Source: an uncultured Candidatus Saccharibacteria bacterium (GTDB lineage: Bacteria; Patescibacteriota; Minisyncoccia; Phycocordibacterales; UBA5272). Taken from it: 64,000 nt of DNA. The stretch spans positions 67,732 through 131,731 of the forward strand of contig CAYJED010000001.1 of assembly GCA_964369115.1 (NCBI GenBank), read 5' to 3'. A program made the position numbers and the translations under genes. This document shows positions 34,571-49,976 of the stretch, one piece after another (position 1 is the first letter of the stretch; every line of letters starts with the position of its first letter). The notes beneath the pieces were generated by a model. It saw only the letters and a program-made list of their open reading frames with translations, did not search any database and had not been told where the DNA came from.

Positions 34571-35407
34571 ATATTTTTCATATTAATTAGTTTGTAAACA
34601 AAAATGAGGTAACGACGTTTAACTTTAAGTTGCTACACCAAGTCGTCATTACCTCGTTTTTATCGACAAAATTTGAGTCATTTCCGCCCCACTTGTTCCG
34701 TTCTCTGTCTTCTTACGGTTCTTATGGTTCGTATCTGCTCAATCTTGTTACTTGGTGTAGCATTTGTATTTGTCACTTAACTCTCGAATCTTTGCAAGTA
34801 TTAAGTGATTCCAATTGATAGGAAAGGAGCACAGCCCCCCTTACCCCCCAAGGAAACTTTTAGTAATCTAGGGGGAGATGTTGAAACTTGTATCCGTTTT
34901 CTCTCGGAGTTTCTTAGTATCATTCTTTGCTACACATGTAGCATTGTTACTCCGCTATTCGTTGATACTTTTCCATCGGTACGAATAACTTATTTAGAGG
35001 CGATTCCACGTTGATGAGGGATCCTCGCACTCCGCAATTTAACCAAAGGGCCTTACTCGAAGGGTGGCTTGCGGAATTAGCCCGACCAGTCCTTCTCGTG
35101 TGAATAGAGTCAATTTCTTGACTCTGGTTTGATTACCAAAATTGATAATAAAACCAGAATTAAGAAGCAAGTACTTTTACTTTTAAGTGTTCTGCTGTTA
35201 CCACTAGTAATGCGTTACCAATCTCTTGAACATCGTCGTCAGACAATGGATCGCAAAAATTACAACCAAAGGATTTATTCAATGCTGTTCTGAGATCTTG
35301 AATTGATTTGATTGATAACTTCATAATAAAAACACCATAGTGTTACTATGGTTATATCAACATATGAAAAATGCCTACAGTCAGTTATCTGTAGACAGTT
35401 AAGTGAC

Positions 35408-36148
35408 TCAAGAATCTTTCCTGTATTTCTTCTGTCTGATTATTTTATCTACCCGAGTGTAGTCCCAGTCAAGATTAAATCTCTTGTTTATTTTCCCAGC
35501 AATCGCTTTAGTAGAAAGTCCAATGTTATTTTTAATAAGATTGTAAATTGAAAGAAGGTCTTCTTTGGTTTTTCTTATTGTTAACATTTTACTTTTAGGG
35601 TCTCGTAACTTTATCTGCATTGGTTCAATTGTATCTTTGTATCTCTTATCCAAAATATCCTTAAGTTCAGTCAGAGAAGTGTAAGGATCAATAAGTATTG
35701 CGATAGGATAAGTTTTAGAATACTCGTTTGATAATGAGAAATTCTTTTTAGAGTCGTTATTTATATTGTAGATTCCGTAAGATTTACCAAAATTAAAAGA
35801 ATCATATCCACCAAAGACAACGTACTCAGAAAACAAAGTAAGCCAAGTGTCTGAGTCAAAACCAAACTGATTACATAGTTTGGCAATAACATCAAAGAAT
35901 TTTGTAGTATCCAATCTCTCAGGTATATCAAAATTAGTATGAGCAAAAACTTCGTCTGAATCTTTTGAATCAGTAGATGTTGGGTATTCTTCAATTCCTT
36001 TTTCTGGTATATCAAATTCCTTTCTGATCTTCGTAACTTCAGACTGAAACTCGTCTGTATACACAACGTGCTCAAAATACGTAGCCATTCGATTGTCGGC
36101 CTGCACATCACTTCTATATCTAAAGTATTTCTTCTTATCGTTTTTCAT
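35408..36148 (-). CDS. Hypothetical protein (about 246 aa) on the island
   Basis: ORF with start taken at MKNDKKKYF (36148). No recognisable family. Its start region overlaps a GTTGCTACACC motif copy. Confidence 0.45.
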   Translation of the reverse strand: MKNDKKKYFRYRSDVQADNRMATYFEHVVYTDEFQSEVTKIRKEFDIPEKGIEEYPTSTDSKDSDEVFAHTNFDIPERLDTTKFFDVIAKLCNQFGFDSDTWLTLFSEYVVFGGYDSFNFGKSYGIYNINNDSKKNFSLSNEYSKTYPIAILIDPYTSLTELKDILDKRYKDTIEPMQIKLRDPKSKMLTIRKTKEDLLSIYNLIKNNIGLSTKAIAGKINKRFNLDWDYTRVDKIIRQKKYRKDS

Positions 36149-36188
36149 GGTGTAGCAACCGAAATAAAGTAAACACATTATAACATTT

Positions 36189-36222
36189 TTGACACTAAAA
36201 AATTACTCGAAAATGATATAAT
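36189..36222 (+). promoter_or_regulatory. Putative promoter (TTGACA ... TGATATAAT) directly abutting ORF 36229
   Basis: TTGACA at 36189-36194 and an extended -10 TGATATAAT at 36214-36222. The spacer is longer than optimal. Would give a leaderless transcript. Confidence 0.3.
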
Positions 36223-36228
36223 TTATAG

Positions 36229-36504
36229 ATGGAATTTAGCAACAAACCAATTGATGTGCTGAAAGAGATAAGTCTAGAACCCCTTAAAGAAACAAAGGTT
36301 CCTTTGGTGCGAGGTTACCGAGGAAGATTTGTAACTGGTAACCAAGAAAGTGTTGGCAATAAAGGTGGTCGTCCACGCAAACTCACACGTGCTGAACTGA
36401 TTGAAAATCCTGAGAAGTTACAAAGAATTATAGAGAGATCCGAAAATGGTGACACTGACGCACTGATCATACTAATAAACCTTATGGAGGGAAAAATAAA
36501 ATAA
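36229..36504 (+). CDS. Small basic protein with AT-hook-like GRPRK motif (possible DNA-binding regulator or recombination directionality factor)
   Basis: 91 aa; NKGGRPRKLTRAELIENPEKLQRIIE resembles an AT-hook plus HTH. No SD. Its first 20 nt are duplicated at 36505-36525. Confidence 0.4.
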   Translation: MEFSNKPIDVLKEISLEPLKETKVPLVRGYRGRFVTGNQESVGNKGGRPRKLTRAELIENPEKLQRIIERSENGDTDALIILINLMEGKIK

Positions 36505-36904
36505 TCCAATTGATGTGCTGAAAGTAGAGACTGATATAACAGTAAGAAACTCGGTGAAAACAGATTCAAAAAAATTGAATAGTAATTTCTGTACAGAAAT
36601 CGAGACCGTATAAACACGGATAAAACTCGGTGAAATTAATAGTGGCTCTAATTGATATACAGAAAGTGAGACCATCTAAACTTGGAATAAACTTGGTAAA
36701 AAATTACAGTAACCCAATTGATATAGTGAAAGTGAGCCCAGTTATAACAGGAGAAAACTCGGTGAAATACTGAAAGTTTAGATTGAAATAACAAATTAAA
36801 ACTCGACAAAAACAAATTCATAAATATAGTAGCCAGAATTTCAGTACTGAAATTGACACCGTTAGAATACGGTGAAAACTCGGTGAAAATTACTTCTGTG
36901 ATCC
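36505..36904. repeat. Non-coding tandem array of about 5 structured repeat units (64-144 nt)
   Basis: The constant 14-mer AAACTCGGTGAAA occurs at 36548, 36624, 36757 and 36876, with variants at 36690 and 36799. Each unit has an [A/T-rich palindromic arm]-GAAAG-TGAGNCC head, e.g. perfect palindromes tttctgtacagaaa (36585-36598) and aatttcagtactgaaatt (36838-36855). Each unit also has a short hairpin with compensatory stem changes (ccgt/acgg, caccgt/acggtg, actg/cagt, cca/tgg). No ORF. Confidence 0.8.
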
Positions 36905-37168
36905 AAGTAGAATGTACTTAGCCAAGAATTTTAGGCCTCCGATAAGTACAAGGTACCCGAGGAGAGCCAGAAAAAATTCATAGTGAAAACCGTCTGTGAT
37001 CCAAATGTAAATACTGAAAATTAGTCCAACCCAAAATGGTATTCCAAGTATAAAATAGATAACCTTAAAGGATCTATAAAGCGGTGTATTTTTTGTATCT
37101 GTAGTCATAATGATGAAATACAGAGTACCTACGTAAAAACAAAATAGGCACCCCATAGAGGTGCTCAC
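36890..37168 (-). CDS. Possible small membrane protein (about 70-92 aa)
   Basis: Hydrophobic ORF with 2-3 predicted TM helices. No SD identified. Confidence 0.3.
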   Translation of the reverse strand: MSTSMGCLFCFYVGTLYFIIMTTDTKNTPLYRSFKVIYFILGIPFWVGLIFSIYIWITDGFHYEFFLALLGYLVLIGGLKFLAKYILLGSQK

Positions 37169-37286
37169 ATATCAATAACTTTCGTTACCAATCATGTTTC
37201 CTCATAGGATGCCTATGCTGTGCACGATTGGTAACGAAATAAGCACATTAAAATGCTGATTTTGAAAAACTTATTGATATGTGAGC
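37163..37286. repeat. Long nested inverted repeat (imperfect hairpin/cruciform of about 124 nt)
   Basis: Outer 16-bp perfect IR gctcacatatcaataa (37163-37178) / ttattgatatgtgagc (37271-37286). Inner 14/15 IR ctttcgttaccaatc (37179-37193) / gattggtaacgaaa (37226-37239). Central catagg / cctatg (37203-37217). A 30-nt asymmetric insert lies in the right arm. Confidence 0.8.
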
Positions 37287-37364
37287 AAGTACATAATACC
37301 ACAAAACATTGATATCTCATAGGGTATTAGACGTAAGTTGTTCACAAGTGCCTTAACTTGGTGC

Positions 37365-37393
37365 TTGACAAAGTTAAAGTAAAGGTATATACT
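37365..37393 (+). promoter_or_regulatory. Putative sigma70-type promoter upstream of the fic gene
   Basis: TTGACA (37365-37370), 17-nt spacer, TATACT (37388-37393). Confidence 0.45.
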
Positions 37394-37422
37394 TTAACTA
37401 TAAAAATAAATAAGTAAAAGAA

Positions 37423-38586
37423 ATGAACTTCAAATCAGGTACAAAATATAAGGCAGAAACACCAAGCGGACAGAAATATACCGCCTTTTTACCTGAACTT
37501 ATAAATAAAGAATTCACTTGGAAAGATCCGCAGATAGACCTACTACTTGAACAGGCCCGAGGTTGGATTGGTGAACTTAATGCCTATTCTAAATTAGTCC
37601 CTAACGTTGAATATTTTATTCAATCTCACGTAGCAAAAGAAGCCGAACAATCTAGTAGAATTGAGGGCACTAAAACTACTCTCGAAGAACTGTACCTAGA
37701 TATTGCAGACCTTACAGACAGTGAAAAAGTAAATGACCAAGAAGAAGTTAAGAACTACATTAAAGCACTCAATGAATCTGTAAAAGAATTAACTAGTGAA
37801 AGTGGCCTACCTTTGTGTACGAGACTTGTATGTGACACACATAAAATACTTCTATCGGGTGTTCGTGGGTATTCTCGCAATCCAGGTAAAATAAGAAAAA
37901 TACAAAATAAGATCGGAGGCGGACACGGCACTTTTGAAGATGCCGTGTTTATTCCACCGTCACCAGATAAAGTAGACGACCTGCTAAAGGATCTAGAAAA
38001 CTTTTGGAATAACAATGACTTACATATACCAAACCTTATAAAGACTGCATTGTCACACTACCAGTTTGAAACCATTCACCCATTCGAAGATGGTAACGGT
38101 CGTACAGGTCGCTTGATAATCATTCTTCAACTTATCTCATATAAGATGCTCGAGAAACCAACTCTCTACCTATCAGACTATTTCGAAAAGAATCGTCCCG
38201 CATACTACGATGCCCTATCAAGGGTACGTGAGTCACACGACATAGAGCACTGGATTAAGTTTTTCTTGATCGGAGTGGCCGACACTGCAAAGAAAGGTAA
38301 AGAAACACTAGAGAAGATAATCGACTTACGAATTAAGTACGAAACACTTATTAGTGGAGGTATCGGAGCAAAGAGACAAAAACTTGCACGAGAACTCATT
38401 GTGGCCCTCTTCGAGAAACCAGTGGTAACCGCAAAAGATGTTGAAAGCATATTAAATATTACTAAACCAACTGCCCACTCCCTCGTCGATGATCTAGAGC
38501 GAGTCGGAATACTAAAAGAAAAAACAGGGTTGTCTCGTAACAGAATATTCACCCTACACGAGTACTTAGCATTATTTAATAACTAA
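37423..38586 (+). CDS. Fic/DOC family protein (putative AMPylating toxin) with N-terminal inhibitory motif
   Basis: Canonical Fic motif HPFEDGNGRTGR and an upstream SxxxEG-type inhibitory helix motif (SSRIEGT). The C-terminal part is HTH-like. Confidence 0.85.
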   Translation: MNFKSGTKYKAETPSGQKYTAFLPELINKEFTWKDPQIDLLLEQARGWIGELNAYSKLVPNVEYFIQSHVAKEAEQSSRIEGTKTTLEELYLDIADLTDSEKVNDQEEVKNYIKALNESVKELTSESGLPLCTRLVCDTHKILLSGVRGYSRNPGKIRKIQNKIGGGHGTFEDAVFIPPSPDKVDDLLKDLENFWNNNDLHIPNLIKTALSHYQFETIHPFEDGNGRTGRLIIILQLISYKMLEKPTLYLSDYFEKNRPAYYDALSRVRESHDIEHWIKFFLIGVADTAKKGKETLEKIIDLRIKYETLISGGIGAKRQKLARELIVALFEKPVVTAKDVESILNITKPTAHSLVDDLERVGILKEKTGLSRNRIFTLHEYLALFNN

Positions 38587-38592
38587 AAACAT

Positions 38593-40575
38593 ATGGAAAA
38601 CTTCAATCAAAAAACTTCAATGATCTGGAACGTAGCCGACATACTACGTGGTGGATGGAAACAACACGAATACCAAGATGTAATCTTGCCACTTGTGGTG
38701 CTTAAGAGACTGGACTCTATTCTTACAGATACCAAACAAGCAGTACTCAACAAAAACGATGAGTATCAAGGAAAAATCAATGATTTAGACCCAATCCTAA
38801 AACGTACTTCAAAAGTAGAGTTCTACAACATATCAGCATATGACTTCAAACTACTTCTTAGTGATCCAAAGAATATTGCAAAAAACTTCAGACTCTACAT
38901 AACTGGATTCAGTAAGAATATTCAAGATATATTCGAGAAATTCAACTTCAATGTGCAACTAGAAAGACTGGAGGGTGGTGACATGTTGTTCTTGGTAATT
39001 CAAGAGTTAAACAAGATAGACCTACACCCATCAAAAGTAGATAACTATCAAATGGGACACATCTTCGAAGAACTCCTTCGTAAGTTCTCTGAAATGTCTA
39101 ACGAGACCGCTGGAGAGCACTACACACCAAGAGATGTAATCAATACAATGGTTGAGATACTCTTGTCTCCAGATGCAAAGGAACTAAAAAAGCCACATGT
39201 TATCAAAAAAATATACGATCCTGCTTGTGGTACAGGTGGAATGCTTACAACTGCAAAAGATTACATTATCGACAAAGTAAACAAAGAAGCAGATATATTC
39301 CTGTACGGTCAAGAACTAAACTCAGTCACATACGCTATAGCAAAATCAGACATCCTTATAAAGGGTGAAAATCCAGACTTGATACGTGGAGGAGAAAAGG
39401 ATCACTCACTTGCAAGTACGCTTTCCAACGATCAATTCTTTGGAGAGGTATTTGACTATGGAATTTCAAATCCTCCATACGGAGTAGACTGGAAGAAAGA
39501 TAAAGATGCAGTAGATCGTGAAGCATCACGTGGATACGCAGGCAGATTCGGAGCAGGTACGCCTCGTATATCAGATGGTCAGTTGCTATTCATGGAGCAT
39601 CTTGTCTCAAAAATGAAACCAGAAAGTGATGGAGGTTCTCGTATTGCAGTAGTTCATAATGGGTCACCTCTCTTCACTGGTGATGCAGGTAGCGGAGAAA
39701 GTGAAATACGTAGATGGATACTTGAGAAAGATTTACTAGAAACAATAGTGGCACTCCCTGATCAACTTTTCTATAACACAGGTATCAATACATACCTTTG
39801 GTTCGTATCAAATAGAAAATCAAAAGAAAGAAAAGGTAAAGTACAACTCATAGATGCACGTAACTTCTACAAGAAGATGCGTAAGAGTCTCGGCAATAAA
39901 CGCCACGAGATAGATACAGATTCTCAAAAGAAAATATTTGATCTATACAATTCATTTGAAGAAAATGAGCATTCAAAGATATTCAATACTACCGACTTTG
40001 CATACCGACAAATACAAATTGAAAGACCTCTAAAACTTTCATTTGATTTCAACGATGAAAAAATAAAAGAACTGCTAGTGCTATTTTCTACAGATACAGA
40101 TAAATCAGGTATCAAGTCGTTCATAGAATCCTTCAAGGGAGAAACTTATAACGACAGAAAGAAACTTGAGGATATTATAACCAAGCGTTCAAAAGAGTTC
40201 ATCACTGGAAAACTTGGAGCGGGAGTAATAAAGAAGTTTATTTTACTCTCTGGGACCAAAGATGAGAATGCAGAAACCTGTGTGGACAAAGATGGTAACC
40301 CTGAAGCCGATGGTGACTTACGTGATCACGAGAATGTGCCCTACGGCACCGACGTGAAGGAATACTTCGACAAAGAAGTAAAACCTTATATTAGTGATGC
40401 ATGGATCAATGAATCGGTCCGAGACCACAAGGATAATCAGGTGGGTGTAGTTGGCTACGAAATACCCTTCACAAGATACTTCTATAAGTATGAAGCACCG
40501 AGAAGTCTTGAAGCAATAGAAAAAGATATTGAAGAGGTCGAAAATGAACTTCTAACCTTGCTTAAGCAATTATAA
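38593..40575 (+). CDS. hsdM: Type I restriction-modification system methyltransferase subunit
   Basis: HsdM N-terminal domain, SAM-binding region and NPPYG catalytic motif (ISNPPYGVDW). 660 aa with a C-terminal extension. Confidence 0.9.
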   Translation: MENFNQKTSMIWNVADILRGGWKQHEYQDVILPLVVLKRLDSILTDTKQAVLNKNDEYQGKINDLDPILKRTSKVEFYNISAYDFKLLLSDPKNIAKNFRLYITGFSKNIQDIFEKFNFNVQLERLEGGDMLFLVIQELNKIDLHPSKVDNYQMGHIFEELLRKFSEMSNETAGEHYTPRDVINTMVEILLSPDAKELKKPHVIKKIYDPACGTGGMLTTAKDYIIDKVNKEADIFLYGQELNSVTYAIAKSDILIKGENPDLIRGGEKDHSLASTLSNDQFFGEVFDYGISNPPYGVDWKKDKDAVDREASRGYAGRFGAGTPRISDGQLLFMEHLVSKMKPESDGGSRIAVVHNGSPLFTGDAGSGESEIRRWILEKDLLETIVALPDQLFYNTGINTYLWFVSNRKSKERKGKVQLIDARNFYKKMRKSLGNKRHEIDTDSQKKIFDLYNSFEENEHSKIFNTTDFAYRQIQIERPLKLSFDFNDEKIKELLVLFSTDTDKSGIKSFIESFKGETYNDRKKLEDIITKRSKEFITGKLGAGVIKKFILLSGTKDENAETCVDKDGNPEADGDLRDHENVPYGTDVKEYFDKEVKPYISDAWINESVRDHKDNQVGVVGYEIPFTRYFYKYEAPRSLEAIEKDIEEVENELLTLLKQL

Positions 40576-40579
40576 TTAT

Positions 40580-41782
40580 ATGAAAGAAGAAACAAAAAAT
40601 ATAATATGCCCTGAATGCGGAACATCAATATCAATCGATGATGCTTTAACGCACCAGATTGAAAACAAACTCAAGAAAGAATATGAGGACAAAGAAAAAT
40701 CAATAAGAGAATCTATTGAAAAAGAATCTTCAAAGAAACTTGAGCAAGATAAGGTAGAAATGGAAAAGAAATTAAAAGCACAGGTCCTAAAAGATACTGA
40801 GGCAGAAAAGGTAGCATCCAATGAAAAAAATAAACTCCTTGAAGAACAACTTGCTGATAAAGAGGCAAAACTAAAAGAAGCACGTCAGAATGAAGTTGCT
40901 CTCATAAAAGAGAAGCAGAAACTAAAGGATGATCAGGAGGCATTCGAATTAGAAAAGACACGCCAACTTGCAGAGGAAAGAAAGCAAATAGAAGAAGATG
41001 CTTCAAGGAAAGCCACTGATGCAAAGCAATCTGAAATCGATCAACTTAACAAGAAACTATCTGATGCTACAAAAGCAAAAGATGAATTAGCAAGAAAACT
41101 AGAACAAGGGTCACAGCAGACCCAAGGCGAGGTCCAAGAACTGGCCCTAGAAGAACTCCTTAAGGAGGCATTCATCTATGACGACGTATCTCCTGTTGGA
41201 AAAGGTGTTACTGGTGCAGACGTTATACAAACTGTCAAAACAAAGTCTGGTGTTGAATGCGGGAAAATAATCTGGGAATCAAAGAAAACTAAAACATGGA
41301 CCGAGGGATGGATACAGAAATTGAAAGATGACCAGAGACAGGTTAAAGCAGATCTTGCGGTTATTGTTACATCTGCTATGCCTCAAGGAACTAGTGGTAT
41401 CACCCAGAAAGATGGTGTATGGATTTGTGATATCAAATTGGCTCTATCAATAGCAACACTACTGAGACACTCACTTGAGACAGTAGCCAGAGAAAAGTCT
41501 ATGTCTGTAGGTAAGAATGAGAAAGTTGAAATCCTATACGCATACCTCACAGGCACAGAGTTCAAACAAAGAATCGAAGTGATAGTAGAGACATTTTCTA
41601 GTATGAAAACTTCTCTTGATAAAGAGAAACTTTACTTCACCAAAACTTGGGCAGAAAAAGAGAAACAAATAGATCGAGTTATACAAAATACTGTAGGCAT
41701 CTACGGTGATCTTAGCGGTGTCGTTCAATTGCAAAAAATTGAGTCACTTGAATTACCAAGCGGAGTAGATAAAGAAGAATAA
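40580..41782 (+). CDS. Zn-ribbon + long coiled-coil + C-terminal putative PD-(D/E)xK-like domain protein (DUF2130-like) embedded in the R-M operon
   Basis: CPECGTSI zinc ribbon, about 200 aa of K/E-rich coiled coil, and a C-terminal GADVIQTV...KIIWESKKTK segment compatible with D...ExK nuclease core motifs. Confidence 0.55.
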   Translation: MKEETKNIICPECGTSISIDDALTHQIENKLKKEYEDKEKSIRESIEKESSKKLEQDKVEMEKKLKAQVLKDTEAEKVASNEKNKLLEEQLADKEAKLKEARQNEVALIKEKQKLKDDQEAFELEKTRQLAEERKQIEEDASRKATDAKQSEIDQLNKKLSDATKAKDELARKLEQGSQQTQGEVQELALEELLKEAFIYDDVSPVGKGVTGADVIQTVKTKSGVECGKIIWESKKTKTWTEGWIQKLKDDQRQVKADLAVIVTSAMPQGTSGITQKDGVWICDIKLALSIATLLRHSLETVAREKSMSVGKNEKVEILYAYLTGTEFKQRIEVIVETFSSMKTSLDKEKLYFTKTWAEKEKQIDRVIQNTVGIYGDLSGVVQLQKIESLELPSGVDKEE

Positions 41783-41783
41783 T

Positions 41784-43070
41784 ATGCAAACACTCAAACT
41801 CACAAAAAAATATGAGACATACCCTGAATACAAAGATTCGGGTGTTGAGTGGTTGGGTATGATTCCGAAAGATTGGAAATACAAAAAACTAAAATCATTT
41901 TTCTCACTAAGTAATGAAAAAGTTGCTGAGAATCCAGAAATCACAACCATTCTTTCTGTCTCAGGTTACAGAGGTGTAGAAATTAGAAAAAATACTGAGA
42001 CTTTTGATGGACAAATGCCATCAGAAAATGTTGATGCATATAGAATTGTAAGAAAAAACCAACTAGTAGTTAATACTATGTGGCTTAACTTTACTGGACT
42101 GGGTGTATCAAATTATGAAGGGTACGTTAGTCCTGCATATAGGGCGTACAACATATCGAAAGAAATGCTCCCAGAATATGTAAATCATTTAATGAGATCT
42201 ACTGCTTATGTTCAAAAATATTCTAGTCTATTATACGGAATGCGACCAAATTCTCTTCAGGTGAAGCCGTATGATTTCGAAAAGATTGAAATATTGTATC
42301 CAGATATAAAAGAACAAAAACGTATTTCAATGTACCTTGATAAAAAAACTACTCTCATTGATCAGATAATAGAAAGAAAAGAAGCACTAATTGTTATCTT
42401 ACGGGAAAAAAGAAATGCTACGATAAGCAAGCAAATAGTTGAAAATACTGGAAAAGATTGGAAAGTTAAAAAAATTAAGCACCTAGTTAAATCAATTGAA
42501 TCTGGAATATGGGGAGACAATCCATTATCTAATAAAGATGACATTAAGTGTTTACGTATTGCTGATTTTGATTATGACAACTTCAGTTACTCTACAGTTG
42601 AAACAATAAGGAATAATTCAAACCTACAGGAAAGAAAGGTTCTCAGAAAAGGAGATATTCTTATGGAAAAATCTGGTGGCGGTGAAAAGACTCCAGTCGG
42701 TCGTGCGATATTGTTTTCCTCTGACGAAAGAATGGTTTGTGCAAACTTTATAGATAAAGTACGTGTTGATAAAGAAAAAATACTCCCAGAGTTCTTAGTC
42801 CTATACCTATCGGTGCTTTATGCAGGTAGAGTAAACACAAAATATATTAAACAAAACACTGGTATCCAGAATATGGATATTAAAGAATACTTTGGAGAGA
42901 ATATTTCCTACCCTGATATTAAAACCCAGAAAAATTTAACGGAATTTGTTAACGCTAAGATTAGTGCTTTTAACAAAGCAATTTCTGATGTAGAAAAAAC
43001 CATTGAAACATTAAAGGAGTTCAAGACTTCTCTTATTTCCAATGCAGTAACAGGAAAAATCAAAGTATAA
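41784..43070 (+). CDS. hsdS: Type I R-M specificity subunit
   Basis: Two target-recognition-domain halves separated and followed by conserved coiled-coil regions. 428 aa. Placed between hsdM and hsdR. Confidence 0.85.
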   Translation: MQTLKLTKKYETYPEYKDSGVEWLGMIPKDWKYKKLKSFFSLSNEKVAENPEITTILSVSGYRGVEIRKNTETFDGQMPSENVDAYRIVRKNQLVVNTMWLNFTGLGVSNYEGYVSPAYRAYNISKEMLPEYVNHLMRSTAYVQKYSSLLYGMRPNSLQVKPYDFEKIEILYPDIKEQKRISMYLDKKTTLIDQIIERKEALIVILREKRNATISKQIVENTGKDWKVKKIKHLVKSIESGIWGDNPLSNKDDIKCLRIADFDYDNFSYSTVETIRNNSNLQERKVLRKGDILMEKSGGGEKTPVGRAILFSSDERMVCANFIDKVRVDKEKILPEFLVLYLSVLYAGRVNTKYIKQNTGIQNMDIKEYFGENISYPDIKTQKNLTEFVNAKISAFNKAISDVEKTIETLKEFKTSLISNAVTGKIKV

Positions 43071-43074
43071 ATAT

Positions 43075-43707
43075 ATGGCAAAAATTGAGATAAACAAAAC
43101 ACACATAGACGCACTAAAGAAACAGAAAAGGACTGTGGGTCTTTTGCAATTTCAAAATAGAGACGATCAAAACTTTTCAAAATGGTATTCACTTACAGAA
43201 AACTTGATAATTAAATCTTTTGGACAAAAGTCTAATCAACTTGGGCAACTTACATCCCTATATCATAAAATGCCAAGAACCGAAGACTTAAAGTATGAAT
43301 TTGATAGAGGTAGATTGGATATAAAAGATTGTAAAGAAAAATTAAAAGACTTGCTTGAAAACTTAATAGCCGAACTGGAATTGGATCTTGCTTCTGAAAA
43401 TGAAGACACAAAAGATAAGCCAACCAAAAAAGGTACATCTATAAAGATCAAAAATAGTCAAACGCAAACGCAAACCATAAATATTACACTGACAATAGAT
43501 CAAATAATTAATAGAATTAAAGAAACAGAATCAGACCCACAAAGAGTCTCGGAAGCAGAAGTAAAATTAAAAGAATTAGATTCTGAATTAAAATCAAAAT
43601 CTCCAGTATGGTCGAAAGTAAAAGACGCTCTAATATGGTTACTGAATTTCGGAAGAGACACATTTTTACAGGTCTTACCCATTATCTTAGAAAGATACAA
43701 ACAGTAA
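43075..43707 (+). CDS. Hypothetical protein (210 aa) between hsdS and hsdR
   Basis: ORF with tight spacing to its neighbours (4-5 nt gaps). Predicted helical; no known motifs. Confidence 0.5.
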   Translation: MAKIEINKTHIDALKKQKRTVGLLQFQNRDDQNFSKWYSLTENLIIKSFGQKSNQLGQLTSLYHKMPRTEDLKYEFDRGRLDIKDCKEKLKDLLENLIAELELDLASENEDTKDKPTKKGTSIKIKNSQTQTQTINITLTIDQIINRIKETESDPQRVSEAEVKLKELDSELKSKSPVWSKVKDALIWLLNFGRDTFLQVLPIILERYKQ

Positions 43708-43708
43708 T

Positions 43709-46690
43709 ATGAAAACACTAACAAACACAAAAGAATCAGGATTCGAAGAGTTCATACAAAATGAACTTGAGAAGATGCATGGATACAAAATCCGCTCATC
43801 ACATCTCTATGACAAGAAACTCTGTATGGATACAGAACTTGTTATTGAGTTCATAGAAAAAACCCAACCTCAAGCATGGGAGAAACTTTCTGAACAGTAT
43901 GGAGAGAACGTAAAGGCAAAAGTTCTGCAGAGAATAGACGAGGAAGTAGACTCACGTGGGATACTCTCAGTATTTCGTGAGGGCATCACAGATAGAGGTG
44001 TGCGTTTCAAACTTGCATTCTTACAACCACAGAATGATTTGAATCCAGAACTAATGCAGGAATATGCTGGGAATATTTTGAGCGTGACTCGCCAAGTGAA
44101 GTACAGTGAGCAGAATGAGAACTCGCTCGACGTGGTCCTATTTATAAATGGATTACCAGTATTCACTCTCGAACTTAAGAATCAATTCACAGGTCAGAAT
44201 GTTATACACGCTATCCATCAATACAAAACAAGTCGAGACCAAAAGGAGAAACTTTTGTCGTTTAAGCGATGCATCACACACTTTGCAGTTGATACAGATC
44301 AAGTGTATATGACAACTCGTCTTACTGGACTCACTACGTACTTTTTACCTTTCAACAAAGGAGACAAAGGTTCATCTGGTAACCCGACAGCACCTGAGGG
44401 TAAATACAAAACTCATTACTTGTGGGAAGAGATTTTCTCAAAGGATATGGTGTTTGATTTGATTGGAAATTTCATACAAGATGTCACTGAAGAAAAAGTA
44501 GATAAGAATGGAAAGAAGCGAAAAGAAGAGAAACTTATCTTCCCTCGATATCATCAACTAGATACTGTGAACCGAATACTAACTCATGTAAAAGCAAATG
44601 GGACTGGTAATAACTACCTCATACAACACAGTGCAGGATCAGGGAAAAGTAATACTATCGCTTGGACCGCACACCGTTTGGCGGAATTACACGATCAAAG
44701 CAATAAACCGATTTTTGATGGGGTTATAGTGGTTACCGACCGAAGAGTGCTAGATAGCCAGTTGTCGGCCACTGTGGACAGTTTTAGCCAAGTTGGAGGG
44801 GTCGTAAAGCACGTAGAGAGTTCTGCTGACCTCAAAGGAGCACTTGAGGGTGGAGTTAAGATCATTACGAGTACTCTACAGAAATTCCCAGTTATCGTTA
44901 GTTCTATAGAAAAGACTGAGGGTAGAAAATTTGCTGTTATCGTTGATGAAGCACACTCGTCACAGTCAGGAGAAAGTTCAGCGGATTTGAGACAGGTGCT
45001 TACTCTTGATGATGCTGTAACGCAAGAAGAAAAAGAAGAGAAGTTATTTAAGACAGTCGAAGATCTTCTTAATGAAAGAATGAAATCAAGAAAGGTTACT
45101 TCACCGAACCTGAGTTTTTTTGCATTTACGGCTACACCAAAACAAAAGACAATTGAACTCTTTGGAACTCAAGATGTGGTTACAGGTAAATTCATCCCTT
45201 TTTCTCTTTATTCAATGAAACAAGCGATTGAAGAAAAGTTCATCTTAGATGTGCTTAAAAACTACACAACCTACGAAACATACTTCGGTCTCTTAAAGAA
45301 GATTGAAGATGACCCAGAGTTCAATAAGAAAAAGGCACAGAGACTACTAATTGGATATGTAGAAAGAAATGAACATGCGATCTTGAAAAAGGTAGCAATC
45401 ATGACTGAGCATTTCGAACAGAAGATCTCAAAACTAATTGGAGGTAAAGCCAAGGCAATGATAGTAACTAAATCACGTTTACATGCCGTGAGATATAAAC
45501 TTGCCTTCGATGCTTACTTAAAGGAAAAAGGTTATGAGCATAAATCCCTTGTTGCTTTCTCTGGTAGTGTTGTTGATCCTGATACAAAACTTGAATATAC
45601 AGAAACTCAAATGAATCATATTCCAGAAAGCCAAACTGCTGAAGAATTCAAGAAAGATGAGTACAAATTCTTAATTGTTGCAGAGAAGTTTCAGACTGGA
45701 TTTGATCAACCGTTACTATCTGCAATGTATGTAGATAAGAAATTAGGAGGCGTAAATGCTGTGCAGACTCTTTCTCGTTTGAACCGCACAACATACGGAA
45801 AAGAAGATACTTTTGTACTAGACTTCTTTAACAAGACAGACGATATCAAGGAAGCATTCCAACCGTACTATACTACTACCGTACTTTCTGAAGCGACAAA
45901 TCCTAACTTATTACATAACCTCGAAAGAGAAGTTCGTGGGTTCAAGTTGTTTACCGACTTTGAGTTGAATGGATTTGTGGAAGAACTCTTTGGAGGTGCA
46001 ACCCCAGACAAACTAAATCACATAATAGATGTGATAGTTGAAAGAGCATTATCCGAAAAAGATGCGGAAGAAATTGAAAGTTTCAAGTCAGTAATTTATG
46101 ACTACTTGAAGAAGTATTCATTTATCTCACAGATCGTAACCTTTGAGGACCCTCAACTAGAGAAGTTGTATATATTCCTAAAGTTCTTGATAAAGAAACT
46201 TCCAAGACGAGAAAACCCTCTGCCAGTAGAGGTCCTTGAGGCAATTGATATGGAAACATACAAGATAGATAAAAAAGGAGAAACTGATGTGATGCTTGAA
46301 AATAAAGATGGAGAACTAGACCCTATGACTGGTGGAGGTGGTAAAAAAACTGGAGGAGATGAAGAGGAAGATGCATTATCTAAGATAATTAAGGAGATAA
46401 ATGAACGATACGGAACAAACTTTAGCGATAATGACAAAGTTATACTTAATGACCTAAGTGCAAAACTACTAAAGAGTACAATTCTTCAAGGTTCAATACA
46501 AAACAACAGTAAGGATTCTGCGAAGTTGAAGTTCGATCAACTCTTCCAAGACGAACTAGTTGGGATGCTTGATAACCACTTTAACCTCTACCAGAAACTG
46601 GACCAAAGCCCAGAATTAAAGAAATTCGTACAGGAGAAAGTCTTTGAACATGTGGTAAAGAAGATGAACACCAATAAAACAAAGGATTAA
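43709..46690 (+). CDS. hsdR: Type I restriction enzyme R subunit
   Basis: N-terminal nuclease domain, SF2 helicase motifs (HSAGSGKSNT Walker A; VIVDEAHSSQ DEAH box), C-terminal domain. 993 aa. Confidence 0.9.
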   Translation: MKTLTNTKESGFEEFIQNELEKMHGYKIRSSHLYDKKLCMDTELVIEFIEKTQPQAWEKLSEQYGENVKAKVLQRIDEEVDSRGILSVFREGITDRGVRFKLAFLQPQNDLNPELMQEYAGNILSVTRQVKYSEQNENSLDVVLFINGLPVFTLELKNQFTGQNVIHAIHQYKTSRDQKEKLLSFKRCITHFAVDTDQVYMTTRLTGLTTYFLPFNKGDKGSSGNPTAPEGKYKTHYLWEEIFSKDMVFDLIGNFIQDVTEEKVDKNGKKRKEEKLIFPRYHQLDTVNRILTHVKANGTGNNYLIQHSAGSGKSNTIAWTAHRLAELHDQSNKPIFDGVIVVTDRRVLDSQLSATVDSFSQVGGVVKHVESSADLKGALEGGVKIITSTLQKFPVIVSSIEKTEGRKFAVIVDEAHSSQSGESSADLRQVLTLDDAVTQEEKEEKLFKTVEDLLNERMKSRKVTSPNLSFFAFTATPKQKTIELFGTQDVVTGKFIPFSLYSMKQAIEEKFILDVLKNYTTYETYFGLLKKIEDDPEFNKKKAQRLLIGYVERNEHAILKKVAIMTEHFEQKISKLIGGKAKAMIVTKSRLHAVRYKLAFDAYLKEKGYEHKSLVAFSGSVVDPDTKLEYTETQMNHIPESQTAEEFKKDEYKFLIVAEKFQTGFDQPLLSAMYVDKKLGGVNAVQTLSRLNRTTYGKEDTFVLDFFNKTDDIKEAFQPYYTTTVLSEATNPNLLHNLEREVRGFKLFTDFELNGFVEELFGGATPDKLNHIIDVIVERALSEKDAEEIESFKSVIYDYLKKYSFISQIVTFEDPQLEKLYIFLKFLIKKLPRRENPLPVEVLEAIDMETYKIDKKGETDVMLENKDGELDPMTGGGGKKTGGDEEEDALSKIIKEINERYGTNFSDNDKVILNDLSAKLLKSTILQGSIQNNSKDSAKLKFDQLFQDELVGMLDNHFNLYQKLDQSPELKKFVQEKVFEHVVKKMNTNKTKD

Positions 46691-46763
46691 AGACTATTTT
46701 CCTCTATCACAGCAATTCGCACATCGTCCCACACTCGGAGCAAAAAGTAAAATCCTCAGGTTT

Positions 46764-46808
46764 CATGCCTGAGGATTTTACTTTTTGTTTCAATCGAAGC
46801 AAGTGACC
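46764..46808 (+). terminator. Strong rho-independent terminator after hsdR
   Basis: aaagtaaaatcctcagg-tttcatg-cctgaggattttacttt perfect 17-bp stem followed by ttgtttc. Confidence 0.65.
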
Positions 46809-46904
46809 TGCGTCACTTGCGTGTAGGGTCGAATAGGGCTCGCGAATCTGCTTCGAGGAGTTTACGACGAGGCAGATTTGTGAGAGATCCCTACTCGCGG
46901 AGCA
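46809..46904 (+). repeat. Structured arm plus 19-nt tRNA-3' core, copy A (att-like junction)
   Basis: gcaagtgac-ctgc-gtcacttgc hairpin, then aatctgcttcg...cgaggcagatt hairpin, ending in gatccctactcgcggagca (46886-46904). Confidence 0.7.
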
Positions 46905-46908
46905 AAGG

Positions 46909-46937
46909 TTGACAATAACCAAATTATAATGTATAAT
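46909..46937 (+). promoter_or_regulatory. Consensus sigma70-type promoter
   Basis: TTGACA (46909-46914), 17 nt, TATAAT (46932-46937). Confidence 0.5.
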
Positions 46938-46967
46938 ATGGTTATTGTTCTATTTTAGGAGTTTCGT

Positions 46968-47180
46968 ATGTATATGGGAAAGTTTGTTTGCGGAAATCCT
47001 GTTTGCAAAAAAGTTTTTGCTGGCAGTGACGATGGATTCTCTGTGAGTGAGTGTCCGCACTGTGGTGCTGGCGCAAACTCTGTTCACCCTGAACCGGAAC
47101 GCACTGACCGAGGTATTGAGCAAGTTGACTACGATGCTCGTAAGGAGCTGTACCAACAGCAACGTTTCGCTGGTTGGTAA
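46968..47180 (+). CDS. Small zinc-ribbon protein (70 aa)
   Basis: AGGAG SD. CGNPVCKK ... CPHCG two CxxC pairs. Confidence 0.5.
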   Translation: MYMGKFVCGNPVCKKVFAGSDDGFSVSECPHCGAGANSVHPEPERTDRGIEQVDYDARKELYQQQRFAGW

Positions 47181-47183
47181 ATT

Positions 47184-47220
47184 ACCGCCCGAGCAAAAAA
47201 ACTGCTTCGGTGGTTTTTTT
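47184..47220 (+). terminator. Terminator hairpin (paralogous to 48664-48702)
   Basis: accgcccgagca-aaaaaac-tgcttcggtgg followed by ttttttt. Confidence 0.5.
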
Positions 47221-47500
47221 GCTTTTATACTCCACTTTCTTCAATAATCGCCTGTCGAACATCTTCCCAGGTTCGGAGCCAAGAGAGACGAGACGCCATG
47301 AAAATGGCGTTTTGTCCTTTTATACCAAGGTAATTAGTAGGTTCTAACCTTTTCATTATCTCCTTTTGCGCTTTTAATTCGTTTTCAATCAAAATAAATG
47401 GATGCGCCTTCTCAATTATGAGCTTTTTATCTTTTAAAGTTAGGTTCGAGCCAATTGTTGAAAATATCGTTCGCTTCTTTTTGAGGTCTCCTGTATTGAA

Positions 47501-48115
47501 ATGATGGAAAGCAAAGGCACAAAAATTAAAGGCCCTCTCTGTAGGGTTGTCTACGGTTCTCTTGCTATCATGGTCATTTCAGTTATTTACAAGATATTTT
47601 TTGATCCAAACTGGCAAGTTCTTTTCTCTGCATCTGTCGCATACGCAAGTTTATTTAATAGGACTATTACTCAACATCTCCCGAAACTCTTCTCTAAGAG
47701 TGATGGTAAAGTTGCCACGACTGAATATTTAATTGATAAAGTTGTACTAGAAAGTATAAATGTATGTAACGCAAATGGTTTATTCTTTAATCAGGCAGTA
47801 TTGGTGTCTGAAGATTCATCACAAATAATTACAATCCCGAACGAGAGAATAAACGATATAGACTCATATCTTAATGAGTTAAAATTAAGCGATTTTAAAC
47901 ATAACAACATTGCTATCGCTATGGCAGGCTCATATGATTGGAAACAATTCTTGTGGAGTGGTGTAAAGCATTACGAGGCATTAATAATTGAAGTCTACTT
48001 ATCTAAAGGAGTGAAAAAGTATAGTTTTTGCCAAACTATTGATAATGATTCGGGCTTATACAAGCCAAGTGAACGAGGGTTAATATATCAAGGTTCTGTA
48101 GCAATCAAAGGGTAA
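47501..48115 (+). CDS. Hypothetical protein (204 aa)
   Basis: ORF with an N-terminal hydrophobic segment. No family recognised. Weak SD. Confidence 0.4.
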   Translation: MMESKGTKIKGPLCRVVYGSLAIMVISVIYKIFFDPNWQVLFSASVAYASLFNRTITQHLPKLFSKSDGKVATTEYLIDKVVLESINVCNANGLFFNQAVLVSEDSSQIITIPNERINDIDSYLNELKLSDFKHNNIAIAMAGSYDWKQFLWSGVKHYEALIIEVYLSKGVKKYSFCQTIDNDSGLYKPSERGLIYQGSVAIKG

Positions 48116-48219
48116 GTGAAAGATTTGCTCCAATCAAAAGTTCTGAACCTGTGTACCGTTCGGAGCATTAATACAAAAAGCCACAAGTTCATTCTTGTGG
48201 CTTTTTGTATTAACTTTTC

Positions 48220-48327
48220 AACGAAGCAAGTGACCTACTTCACTTGCATGTAAGATCGAATACGGGGTCGAGGTTCTACTTCGAGCAAAGCGAGGTAGAA
48301 TCGTGACCGATCCCTACTCGCGGAGCA
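48220..48327 (+). repeat. Structured arm plus 19-nt tRNA-3' core, copy B
   Basis: gcaagtga-cctact-tcacttgc hairpin, ctacttcg...cgaggtag hairpin, ggggtcg...cgatccc pairing, ending in gatccctactcgcggagca (48309-48327). Confidence 0.7.
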
Positions 48328-48330
48328 CTA

Positions 48331-48359
48331 TTGACAAAAGCATTATATATTGTTATACT
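48331..48359 (+). promoter_or_regulatory. Consensus sigma70-type promoter (paralogue of 46909-46937)
   Basis: TTGACA (48331-48336), 17 nt, TATACT (48354-48359). The downstream 5'UTR is similar to the one at 46938-46967. Confidence 0.5.
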
Positions 48360-48395
48360 GCTTTTGTTCTTTCATCAGTATACAGGAGTTACAAA

Positions 48396-48665
48396 ATGTT
48401 TCGTTTCAGTTCGAAGGTCAAACCGCCTTACAACAACAGAAAAGAACATGCAAAATGGAAGAAAAAGTTCGCTTTCTTTCCGGTCGTTATCAGCAGAACA
48501 GGAACCACAGAAACTAAGGTCCTATTTTGCTTCTACGAGGAGCGTGTCTACTGCGACCCCATGGGTGCTTCTGTGTATGGTGGTGATACGGTAACCGAAC
48601 GTCGTCTGCCGGGTTCAACAGAAGTCTGTGAAGTTGATCGACATGATGGTGACCCATTGCTCTAA
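48396..48665 (+). CDS. Small hypothetical protein (about 89 aa)
   Basis: AGGAG SD 7 nt upstream of ATG 48396. Lys-rich N-terminus, C-terminal Cys residues. Confidence 0.45.
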   Translation: MFRFSSKVKPPYNNRKEHAKWKKKFAFFPVVISRTGTTETKVLFCFYEERVYCDPMGASVYGGDTVTERRLPGSTEVCEVDRHDGDPLL

Positions 48666-48702
48666 CCGCCAAGCAAGAAACTGCTTCGGCGGTTTCTTGT
48701 TT
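48664..48702 (+). terminator. Terminator hairpin (paralogous to 47184-47220)
   Basis: accgccaagca-agaaac-tgcttcggcgg followed by tttcttgtttt. Confidence 0.5.
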
Positions 48703-48810
48703 TACACTTCATCCCTCAAACTTTTCATATTCATCATCCCCACCCTCATACCCGAGTACTCCCTCATCAGTTCGGTAAAGAAGGTTTGTGGGGAGCACAT
48801 AAAATCTTAA

Positions 48811-48839
48811 GTCCACCATTTCGGTGGACTTTTGATTTT
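48811..48839 (+). terminator. Hairpin plus T-run
   Basis: gtccacc-atttc-ggtggac followed by ttttgatttt. Confidence 0.4.
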
Positions 48840-48897
48840 AGTGCTCAGTGAGAGTAAAGCCAACTGCTTGGCTTTTCTTTTTGATATACTTATATAA

Positions 48898-49429
48898 TGA
48901 ATACTTACGTGGCTCTACTCCGTGGAATAAATGTAGGAGGTAATAACAAAATTGAAATGACAAAACTCAAAGTCCTTTTTGAGTCACTCGGCTACACGAA
49001 TGTTGTTACTTACATCAATTCAGGCAACGTAATATTTGAGACAAGAAAAAAGATGTCAGTCGGCTGACAAGTGAAATTGAAAAAGGTATAAAAAAGAAAT
49101 TCAAGCTAGATATTCCAGTTGTACTACGTACACAACAAAGTATTGAGAAAGTGTGTAAGAACATCCCACCAGATTGGGTAAATGATAAAGATAATAAAAC
49201 TGATGTAATGTTTCTGTGTGATGAGTTTGCAAGTAAGAAAACTCTAAAAATAATTTCTACTAACCCAAAAATTGATTCGTTACTGTATGTTGATGGGGCT
49301 ATTGTTTGGCATCTAAAAAAGAAGGATTACGAAAAGAGTAAAATGAATGACATTATCGGTACAGAAGTATACAAAAATATGACTATACGAAACATCAATA
49401 CTGTTCGGAAACTTGCAACATTGATGTAA
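48898..49429 (+). pseudogene. DUF1697-family gene disrupted by a -1 frameshift in an A6 run
   Basis: N-terminal part MNTYVALLRGINVGGNNKIEMTKLKVLFESLGYTNVVTYINSGNVIFETRKK stops at TGA 49065-49067. The downstream frame (track ORF 49151..49429, open from about 49063) continues LTSEIEKGIKKKFKLDIPVVLRTQQSIEK... One extra A in aaaaaa (49046-49051) would fuse them. Confidence 0.7.
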
Positions 49430-49440
49430 AAGAAACTATC

Positions 49441-49560
49441 TCTTTTTCTGTACTCACCCAGTCCAAAGTTCTGAACTCGTCCACTAGAGGGATCGAATAC
49501 GGGGTCGAGATTATACTTCGAGCGAAGCGAGGTAGAATCATGACCCGACCCCTACTCGTA
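49441..49560 (+). repeat. Structured arm plus degenerate tRNA-3' core, copy C
   Basis: gggatcgaatacggggtcgag...cgaggtagaatcatgacccgacccctactcgta. ggggtcg/cgacccc pairing. The core is degenerate at 3 positions. Confidence 0.55.
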
Positions 49561-49976
49561 GAAATGAGCGATCATTGTCCTTACAAACCATTCAAGCTGA
49601 TGCTTGCCTCGATCTGTAAGCACCTCGGCGAGTTTGTCGATCTGTGGATGCAACAGAAGATTGTCATGCTCCAAAAAACTGTCGCAACGCATTGCCGTAG
49701 CAACCCGATGTGAAGAAACTCGCCAAGCATTGCAAGAATCTCAATCATGCCTTGGTCAGCGAAGAGGACATCATGATCCCCGATGAAAAGTAACCAATAC
49801 TGTGTGGTTAGATTTCACATTTAAATAAGACTTTTGGTCAAGATTTGTCTTGTGACATAAGAGGCTCGGTACATGATGTCATAAACCATAAGACCAAAGG
49901 AGTAGCTTTAGTCTATAGTCATCCAAATACCAGTGAACACAACCCGGGCCCCGTTTCGACGGGTGCTTTTTCTTTT

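Follow-up and report, generated by a model that had tools for sequence, protein, structure and literature searches.

How do two small genes that have nothing in common in their coding sequences come to share, almost side by side, the same type of promoter, terminator and folded flanking element? The question is raised by a 64-kb stretch of DNA (hereafter the window, to which all coordinates refer) belonging to contig CAYJED010000001.1 of an uncultured Candidatus Saccharibacteria bacterium, in which two such units lie between positions 46909 and 48702. The initial annotation, made from the letters of the sequence, had seen in them a cassette-like array with conserved ends around unrelated payloads, a description that holds after comparison with contigs of related Saccharibacteria and other Patescibacteria (designated by L-numbers) and with homologous proteins (P-numbers). 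What had been called the att core turns out to be the 3′-terminal part of a tRNA-Asn gene, so that the locus falls within the well-known class of tRNA-targeted integration with partial-tRNA repeats: it is a gene-insertion hot spot at tRNA-Asn, and the two mini-units occupy its older, outer part (46.7–49.6 kb).

The tRNA-Asn core and its recombinase

The tRNA-Asn(GTT) gene is recognized by ARAGORN and Rfam on the plus strand at 32822–32894, and its last six nucleotides, GGAGCA (32889–32894), constitute the recombination core. Its last 19 nucleotides, GATCCCTACTCGCGGAGCA, are repeated exactly at 46886–46904 and 48309–48327, and a decayed copy of the tRNA-Asn 3′ end, with no GGAGC(A/C) match, closes the array at 49547–49563; an intact tRNA at one border and displaced partial copies at the other are the signature by which arrays of islands are recognized. 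When every GGAGC(A/C) with a tRNA-like left flank was listed in the window and in the compared contigs, all unit boundaries from 32894 to 48797 were found to lie on this single 6-nt core, to the left of which there is either a tRNA-type half-site (the tRNA itself or a structured arm of ~100 nt) or a sequence of another kind, here called a “tail”.

Proceeding outwards from the tRNA, the core at 32889–32894 joins the tRNA-Asn to a large insertion, island 1; that at 46737–46742 joins tail 1a to terminator T1 and arm A; that at 46899–46904 joins arm A to promoter A, orf70, a terminator and tail 1b; that at 47277–47282 joins tail 1b to a fossil recombinase gene, orf204 and tail 2; that at 48162–48167 joins tail 2 to a terminator and arm B; that at 48322–48327 joins arm B to promoter B, orf89, a terminator and tail 3; and that at 48792–48797 joins tail 3 to a terminator and an arm C that is split around a frameshifted DUF1697 gene.

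The gene abutting the tRNA (32885–34570, minus strand; open reading frame, or ORF, 32882–34570), in which the initial annotation had recognized a serine recombinase, indeed encodes a large serine recombinase (LSR) of 562 amino acids, as attested by Pfam, PDB and homologue searches. Residues 12–149 match PF00239 Resolvase (E=2.7e-18) and residues 9–250 match the structures of SPbeta YokA and TP901-1 integrase; PF07508 is present in many of the homologues and a CxC..CxxC motif is visible in the sequence, the zinc-ribbon Pfam model giving no score on the LSR of the window itself. It is the sole recombinase among the island ORFs scanned, none of which encodes a tyrosine recombinase. The family to which it belongs is widespread in Patescibacteria and comprises 539 homologues (E<1e-20), ~50% identical, from Parcubacteria, Paceibacterota and Nomurabacteria. 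The stop codon of the gene falls within the 3′ end of the tRNA-Asn, the two genes thus overlapping, and the same overlap is found with all LSRs that are 65–90% identical to that of the window, every one of which abuts a tRNA-Asn (four loci, with the same layout).

Since the LSR reading frame crosses the core (32885–32900 and 46687–46743), integration changes the C terminus of the protein. The conserved C-terminal ..FSTML.. is encoded across the core; where the gene abuts a tRNA the protein stops at ~562 residues, ending in ..STMLR(E/G) with its stop codon inside the tRNA, and about one quarter of the LSR homologues listed (P0015–P0134) have 10–30 additional C-terminal residues that are encoded by the attP arm and take three recurring forms, namely ..TW[DE]DVR.., ..[DH][EK]FRT..W.. 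and ..PT..Y.T... An attP located within a phage gene, whose 3′ end is altered by integration, is known from intP of Mx8 and from the integration-dependent immunity of mycobacteriophages; the present case resembles these in the frame that runs across the core into the P arm of the un-integrated form, but it concerns an LSR and not a tyrosine integrase or a repressor.

It is exactly these recurring extensions that are encoded by the minus strands of the tails, all of which are described here on the plus strand. Tail 1a (46691–46742, ending GGAGCA) corresponds to the P arm of the attP of island 1, and its minus strand encodes LLRVWDDVRIAVIEENSL followed by a stop codon, the C-terminal extension of the LSR in its un-integrated form; tail 1b (47221–47282, ending GGAGCC) is a P-arm copy, with a minus strand encoding ..LRTWEDVRQAIIEESGV and stop. 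Tail 2 (48123–48167, ending GGAGCA), the minus strand of which encodes MLRTVHRFRTFDW... (compare ..LVHKFRTFDW of P0087), is the P arm of another LSR sub-lineage and 96% identical to the end of L131, and tail 3 (48703–48797, ending GGAGCA), with VLPTNLLYRTDEGV... up to a stop codon on the minus strand, is that of a third one; together with its terminator it is 76% identical to the corresponding segment of L081 (79% by blastn). These coding relics identify the tails as the attP arms that belong to LSR elements. Tail 1b directly adjoins, in the arrangement of an attP, a fossil LSR gene of which the 3′ end remains (47283–47518, minus strand); it was recognized from its translation and with a family profile of the LSR (hmmsearch, E=4e-10, positions 477–547 of the profile). 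This fossil overlaps the predicted start of orf204.

The un-integrated (attP) configuration is seen in L150, which bears replication genes and no tRNA and in which tail 1, core and LSR are contiguous; L151–L154, also devoid of a tRNA, have a replication gene and an extended LSR each, the tail–core–LSR junction being unconfirmed in these contigs. No terminal overlaps indicating circularity were found in L150–L154, and a scan of viral contigs with the arm pattern and two LSR attP/P′ patterns yielded 0 matches.

Island 1 (32895–46742) is the newest insertion of the array. Besides the LSR it contains SoFic, a type I restriction-modification system (HsdM, DUF2130, HsdS, HsdR) and other genes assigned with Pfam and PADLOC. 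Its close relatives always abut a tRNA-Asn and end in tail 1 (in L144 and L146 at the far end, on GGAGC(A/C)), and the unoccupied site is represented by L131, from a distant relative, in which a tRNA-Asn identical to that of the window, preceded by an orthologous flanking protein (41% identical), is followed directly by T1 and arm A.

In related Saccharibacteria the same tRNA-Asn site holds islands with other LSR lineages (L137 10801–18337, L140 8744–18563, and L144–L146). Their cargo includes Prim-Pol/AAA_25, a MmeI-like methyltransferase with SNF2/PLD, type III restriction-modification, Pycsar, AbiEii and AAA_15, a variety that characterizes the site as a defense-island hot spot.

The two mini-units and the exchange of their modules

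The features listed by the initial annotation are all present, at the positions given or a few bases away, and each exceeds what chance would produce; the promoters of the two mini-units are as it had described them. Promoter A (TTGACA-17-TATAAT, plus strand, 46909–46937 within an element spanning 46909–46948) matches the consensus at 12 of 12 positions and promoter B (TTGACA-17-TATACT, plus strand, 48331–48359 within 48331–48367) at 11 of 12; they are the two top promoter-like sites between 46600 and 49700, and TTGACA-N16-18-TATAMT occurs three times in the 64 kb against 0.07 expected. The third consensus promoter of the window (TTGACA-17-TATACT, 37365–37393) is located just upstream of the SoFic gene of island 1. 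Both mini-unit promoters are embedded in palindromes (46912–46948, 37 bp, for A; 48334–48367 for B), and the likeness that had been noticed between the two 5′ untranslated regions (UTRs) is real, consisting of a shared ‘ttgttc’ that represents the right arm of the promoter palindrome; in the window TTGACAA-N22-36-TTGTTC is confined to these two sites.

Behind promoter A lies orf70 (46968–47180, plus strand, from the ORF list), which encodes a Zn-ribbon-like small orphan protein with a CxxC...CxxC motif and a single relative cluster (88% identity) among 1.8 billion representatives; behind promoter B lies orf89 (48396–48665, plus strand, its start being at 48396 and not at 48397), encoding an 89-aa small orphan protein with one homologue, P0136, 53% identical. 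The two products are indeed unrelated to each other, and neither has a Pfam or PADLOC match. Both genes are followed by terminators of one family, CCGCC..CTTCGGYGG, detected on the plus strand by pattern and inverted-repeat search at 47184–47220 (unit A) and 48664–48702 (unit B), whose near identity had been correctly noted; in the window CCGCC...CTTCGGYGG occurs just at 47185–47213 and 48666–48692 (0 expected), and the family is also present in L081, L116, L109 and L149. The promoter and terminator modules are absent from the rest of the 64 kb.

In a pairwise alignment of the two units the arm with its core, the promoter and the terminator stand out as conserved. What follows the two terminators, for which similarity had also been claimed, is instead a pair of different tails (types 1 and 3) that are only weakly alike, and unit A is separated from the next arm, arm B, by the fossil recombinase fragment and by orf204 (47501–48115, plus strand, from the ORF list), a 204-aa cargo ORF with no Pfam/PADLOC assignment.

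Two units of the same layout, placed next to one another, could be the product of a simple local tandem duplication of a promoter–ORF–terminator–arm unit followed by coding replacement, an explanation that the initial annotation had set against its own; the 90% identity of arms B and C, which may have arisen from one another by local duplication, speaks in its favor. Yet arm A is 99% identical to the arm of L131 and 93% to that of L081 but only 81% to arm B, and, since it is nearer to arms of other genomes than to its neighbor, a simple local duplication is rejected as highly improbable. The same conclusion is favored by promoter B, which is 93.8% identical to its counterpart in L081, by promoter A, which is closest to modules of L149 and L131, by the derivation of the two tails from different LSR sub-lineages and by the presence of the fossil LSR and orf204 between the units.

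What these genomes display is a re-partnering of modules at the core. The search for further units found them in L081, L131, L116, L109, L014, L148 and L149. In L131 the tRNA-Asn is followed by T1–arm A, a promoter-A-like module, a different ORF (170 aa) and tail 2; its identity with the window is 96.9% over the 162 nt of T1 and arm A, drops to 69% right after the core and reaches background past the promoter module. In L081 a terminator with tail 3 abuts promoter B on the core, whereas in the window the same elements are ~470 nt apart and in the opposite order, promoter B following tail 3 in the former and arm B in the latter, with unrelated ORFs behind it. In L148 the tRNA is followed by a terminator with a different type of arm, then by a terminator, a promoter, a His_Phos_1 gene, tail 1 and finally the LSR, and in both L014 and L116 a tail is followed by a terminator–arm and then by the next module. 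In L149, on the other hand, a homologue of orf89 is found behind a promoter-A-type module, with a terminator of the same family, and ORFs are therefore exchanged also between regulatory modules.

The core junctions of the window, L131, L081, L014, L116, L109, L144, L146 and L148 all lie on GGAGC(A/C) and occur in many combinations, the element to the left being a tRNA, an arm or a tail and that to the right a terminator, a promoter or an LSR. The succession core, promoter/terminator, one gene, (terminator), tail and core is repeated at least six times (twice each in the window and in L081, and in L131 and L148). Between genomes, homology extends as far as the borders of the promoter and terminator modules and no further.

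Could the mini-units be something less than mobile entities? According to a second explanation they never moved alone and represent what deletion has left of the right-hand parts of one full-size LSR island after another, namely the last cargo gene, the terminator and the P arm, their common promoters and terminators being due to homologous recombination of the PeSL type (see below) and not to cassette capture. The tails are clearly LSR-derived, the fossil LSR 3′ end and the pseudogenized DUF1697 gene bespeak decay within the array, the position of the orf89 homologue in L149 and the arrest of homology at the module edges fit such recombination, and islands at tRNA genes have been documented to accrete in tandem and to decay (bioRxiv 10.1101/2020.12.28.424599). 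However, this origin would need repeated deletions fusing the core precisely to the start of a promoter or terminator module, in an architecture of which there are at least six instances, and promoter B abuts the core in two genomes with different left partners; the explanation is considered the less likely one, but a serious alternative.

The structured arm

Each mini-unit is preceded by an arm, and the arms of the window, all on the plus strand, are homologous. Arm A with its 19-nt copy of the tRNA 3′ end (46799–46904; arm proper 46799–46894) follows T1, a bidirectional terminator hairpin (46741–46787) containing the 20-bp perfect inverted repeat I4; it scores 113.7 bits with the covariance model R1 and consists of hairpin 1 (46799–46820) and of a long T-arm-like hairpin, with a predicted folding energy of -52.2 kcal/mol (z = -5.4). 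Arm B with the same 19-nt copy (48226–48327; arm proper 48226–48317; R1 106.8 bits; fold z = -3.75) likewise follows a terminator hairpin (48168–48213) with a 20-bp perfect inverted repeat, I3.

Arm C (48841–49563) is split by a gene and by the remnant of a tail. Its 5′ part, together with a terminator hairpin, spans 48800–48875 (acceptor-complement 48841–48853, hairpin 1 48856–48875), has a weak R1 match at 48837–48903 and is similar to the 5′ half of the arm of L132; there follow the frameshifted DUF1697 gene (48897–49429; Pfam E=2.3e-24 for the first fragment), a remnant of tail-2 type (minus strand ..PLVDEFRTLDW..) and the long hairpin with the decayed core (49483–49563, the hairpin extending to 49555; R1 70.9 bits). 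The right junction of the interruption resembles a join at a shared AGGGA.

Homologues of the arm, collected by a pattern scan of metagenomes and from the true matches (7 of 120 loci) of an over-loose genome scan, were recovered from Patescibacteria only; the arm-bearing contigs are L001, L009, L014, L067, L081, L109, L116 and L121–L132. The arms are located just 3′ of tRNAs for Asn, Lys, Arg (four isoacceptors), Val, Trp, Met, Cys, Leu, Gly, Pro and Phe; their orientation is invariably that of the tRNA, in some loci they occur in tandem, and in the fetched Patescibacteria loci ~20 of 25 tRNAs have an arm at their 3′ side, a fraction that is biased upwards because the loci were chosen for containing arms. 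Their layout consists of a bidirectional terminator hairpin, hairpin 1 (8–10 bp, loop CUGC), a long hairpin that matches the T-stem of the local tRNA at its base and has the conserved TCGAATAGGGGTCGCGAAWCTRCTTCGAGCAAAGCGAGGYAGWTTTGTGACCGA in its interior, and a copy of the tRNA 3′ strand. In several loci the terminator hairpin is lengthened to a long palindrome by the complement of the acceptor 3′ strand of the tRNA.

In a MAFFT alignment of 23 copies, 91.4% of the cells of the arm pair, compared to 38–43% when the partners are slid; 19 of 36 pairs display changes on both sides, and three conserved G.U pairs are such that only the tRNA-sense strand fits the arm, R1 scoring 70–133 bits in the forward and ~20 bits in the reverse direction. 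RNA folding reproduces the structure with z = -3.8 to -9.7, and among the unpaired nucleotides TCGAATA is invariant and the CUGC loop nearly so. L116, L123 and L132 retain an intact acceptor-like closing stem, which has decayed in most copies, including those of the window, so that the notion of a complete tRNA-like three-way junction for all arms is only partly true. Rfam, searched at gathering thresholds and at E up to 10, has no family matching arms, terminators or UTRs, ARAGORN finds only the real tRNA-Asn, and no description of either the arm or this type of array was found in the searchable literature, a preprint on a group I intron in tRNA genes of Patescibacteria proving unrelated. Covarying, adjacent to many tRNAs and absent from both Rfam and the searchable literature, the arm is therefore a candidate new class of RNA or DNA structure; to judge from the alignment, it is a new covarying fold of ~100–130 nt.

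To which partner does the arm belong? The initial annotation had assigned arm and core to the cassettes, and indeed a homologous arm precedes each mini-unit core, but the arm is a chromosome-side element and not part of the cassettes. It is not present in un-integrated LSR elements, nor at the tRNA-Asn of some related Saccharibacteria (L143 and L144). That it might be the right end (attP arm) of an LSR island was dismissed on the grounds that island 1 and its relatives end in tail 1, that L131 has tRNA, T1 and arm without an island and that the un-integrated elements have none. A serine recombinase acting on a folded single strand was set aside for mechanistic reasons, in so far as a hairpin cut in both strands would yield no productive integrant, and a crossover at the center of the arm or terminator palindromes was ruled out because all homology breakpoints lie at GGAGC(A/C).

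The arm could, however, be primarily a functional non-coding RNA mimicking the 3′ half of a tRNA, transcribed together with tRNAs or produced beside them, with a role in tRNA or RNA metabolism; its use in integration and its position between the cassettes would then be incidental. The extent of pairing, the both-sided changes, the strand preference imposed by the G.U pairs and the invariant unpaired nucleotides are what would be expected of an RNA, as are the occurrence of the arm 3′ of tRNAs of many specificities, with a basal stem matching the local tRNA, and its absence from un-integrated LSR elements; since a purely double-stranded attB role does not explain this RNA-like conservation, an RNA function is a real possibility. 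On the other hand, no promoter was identified for the arm, which is located behind a strong bidirectional terminator, its closing stem is intact in few copies only, some related Saccharibacteria do without it at tRNA-Asn, neither Rfam nor the literature has a record of it, and its tandem occurrence and the discrete core-bounded indels of 160 nt are the behavior of a mobile element. On balance a primary RNA role is deemed plausible but less likely than not.

Some further features of these loci were noted in passing. In L143 (10520–10590), L126, L124, L122, L132 and L109 the tRNA is followed by a terminator in the form of a long and perfect palindrome, which takes in both the acceptor 3′ strand of the tRNA and the complement of that strand, the copies of Paceibacterota type having a conserved loop, TGTAATC, and in L067 (1230–1270), L125 and L126, loci of Paceibacterota type, a conserved motif, GCAAKTAGTAACTCGTGAYCA, lies just 3′ of the arms. 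L148 (reverse strand, ~1270–1410) contains a second, unrelated type of arm that ends in a copy of the tRNA-Asn 3′ end of that genome and is missed by R1. In L122 (~760–850) a T-loop and T-stem, an extra hairpin and an acceptor-like 3′ strand are found where ARAGORN predicts no tRNA, and this may be an interrupted tRNA gene.

Assembly of the array and its relation to known systems

If the mini-units are neither local duplicates nor remnants, by what route could they have been assembled? The preferred reading, held with moderate confidence, is that of a tRNA-Asn hot spot whose mini-units are cargo-only derivatives of LSR elements docked at the arms. LSR elements would integrate at the last bases of the tRNA, and the arms, by copying the tRNA-side half-site (T-stem and acceptor 3′ strand), would provide further attB-like positions downstream; each mini-unit, made of a promoter palindrome, one small ORF, a terminator and a P arm, would dock at the attB-like site of an arm. 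The most likely route would be insertion by an LSR supplied in trans, such as that encoded at 32885–34570, a mobilization supported by an architecture that keeps recurring and by the exact coincidence of the breakpoints with the core. In a second layer the promoter and terminator modules would also act as patches of homology through which ORFs are swapped, as in PeSLs. The scheme predicts definite junctions: the circular orf70 unit would read tail 1b, GGAGCC and aaggTTGACAATAACC, the circular orf89 unit tail 3, GGAGCA and ctaTTGACAAAAGC, and excised island 1 tail 1a, GGAGCA and tagtagaaaaaac, whereas the empty sites would read arm A, GGAGCA and ttaatacaaaaagcc, and arm B, GGAGCA and cataaaatctt.

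Several considerations weigh against this scheme. Neither a circular junction nor an empty site nor a presence/absence polymorphism was observed for the two mini-units. Known LSRs need defined half-sites on both sides and attL/attR-like sites normally need a directionality factor; the right-hand flanks of the cores are heterogeneous and have in common a weak A-rich motif only. Full-size islands may have decayed until only their right ends survived as the mini-units, as discussed above, and, ORFs being shuffled relative to the promoter modules, recombination at the core is not the only process at work. A role as attB copy leaves the RNA-like conservation of the arm unexplained, and the comparison set amounts to ~10 loci found by similarity, which entails an ascertainment bias. 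A bolder extension of the scheme, in which the arm is a structured docking element (an RNA or single-strand fold copying the T-stem and acceptor 3′ strand of the local tRNA) that, set singly or in tandem behind tRNA genes, offers reusable attB sites to one LSR family across Patescibacteria, forming, with the cargo-only P-arm units, an integron-like serine-recombinase platform in the Candidate Phyla Radiation (CPR), is tentative and rather unlikely.

The integron-like logic proposed by the initial annotation was not upheld, the defining features of integrons being absent. The outcome is similar, namely ordered small cassettes at a single anchor with structure-conserved boundaries and a site-specific recombinase nearby, but the recombinase is of the serine type and not an IntI-type tyrosine recombinase, the units are bounded by repeats of the tRNA-Asn 3′ end or by P-arm tails from LSR elements, ending in GGAGC(A/C), in place of attC sites (imperfect palindromes with a conserved R/L box layout at the 3′ end of each cassette), the mini-units have promoters of their own (11–12 of 12 consensus positions) in place of promoterless cassettes under a common Pc, and the folded element resides on the chromosome side and not in the cassette. 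The array is thus not an integron; it fits the class of tRNA-targeted islands that accrete in tandem, such as tycheposons, and by analogy it also resembles the composite arrays of SCCmec.

SCCmec composite islands are arrays of elements several kb or longer, inserted at the 3′ end of rlmH by the LSRs CcrAB/CcrC and separated by short direct repeats, the recombinase-less elements being thought to move in trans. The likeness lies in the serine recombinase, in the targeting of the extreme 3′ end of a conserved gene, in the repeat-separated arrays and in the recombinase-less elements that these arrays include; recombinase lineage, target and host phylum are different, and only the present array has a structured arm.

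Tycheposons of Prochlorococcus accrete in tandem at tRNA genes and in some cases use LSRs (bioRxiv 10.1101/2020.12.28.424599). With these and with Islander-type islands the array has in common a tRNA that is left intact on one side, element borders marked by partial repeats of it, a recombinase gene beside the tRNA, newer elements pushing older ones outwards, degraded integrases, extra partial tRNAs and defense or niche cargo; it differs in that its units are very small (160–900 bp) and single-gene, with their own consensus promoter and terminator, in that its repeats are of two kinds, tRNA-type arms and LSR P-arm tails, and in that the tRNA-type repeats are embedded in a conserved folded element of ~100 nt.

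The statement that such an arrangement is not a described system requires qualification, since conserved promoter/terminator flanks around swapped small ORFs have been described before, in the PeSLs (promoter/stem-loop motifs) by which modules are shuffled in T4-type phages (PMC2839356, PMC4122927). As with PeSLs, small orphan ORFs that are unrelated to one another are flanked by composite promoter and terminator motifs, at which the homology between genomes is interrupted, but the array is chromosomal and tRNA-adjacent and not part of a hyperplastic region of a phage, its motif families are unrelated and it possesses a second, sharper class of breakpoint, on the recombinase core. What is new here is the very small size of self-expressed units, the two-class boundary system and the family of structured arms.

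The genomes of Patescibacteria (CPR) are tiny and little is known of how they gain genes, for which this locus represents a compact and repeatable route. A single LSR family, directed to the final bases of tRNA genes, carries defense islands with SoFic, type I and III restriction-modification, Pycsar, AbiE and OLD/AAA_15, and seems either to leave behind or to load units of one self-expressed gene, which form ordered arrays; if small units are truly mobilized in trans, this would be the serine-recombinase counterpart of cassette capture by integrons. Since its core is short and defined and its flanks are tolerant, the LSR family may in addition be of interest to developers of integrase tools.

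As to the surroundings of the array, past its end there are an OmdA-family gene and then a Band_7 gene, and upstream of the tRNA, within a coding region, the sequence CCCTACTCATGGAG at 30073–30086 has two mismatches to the tRNA core, a resemblance that is probably due to chance.

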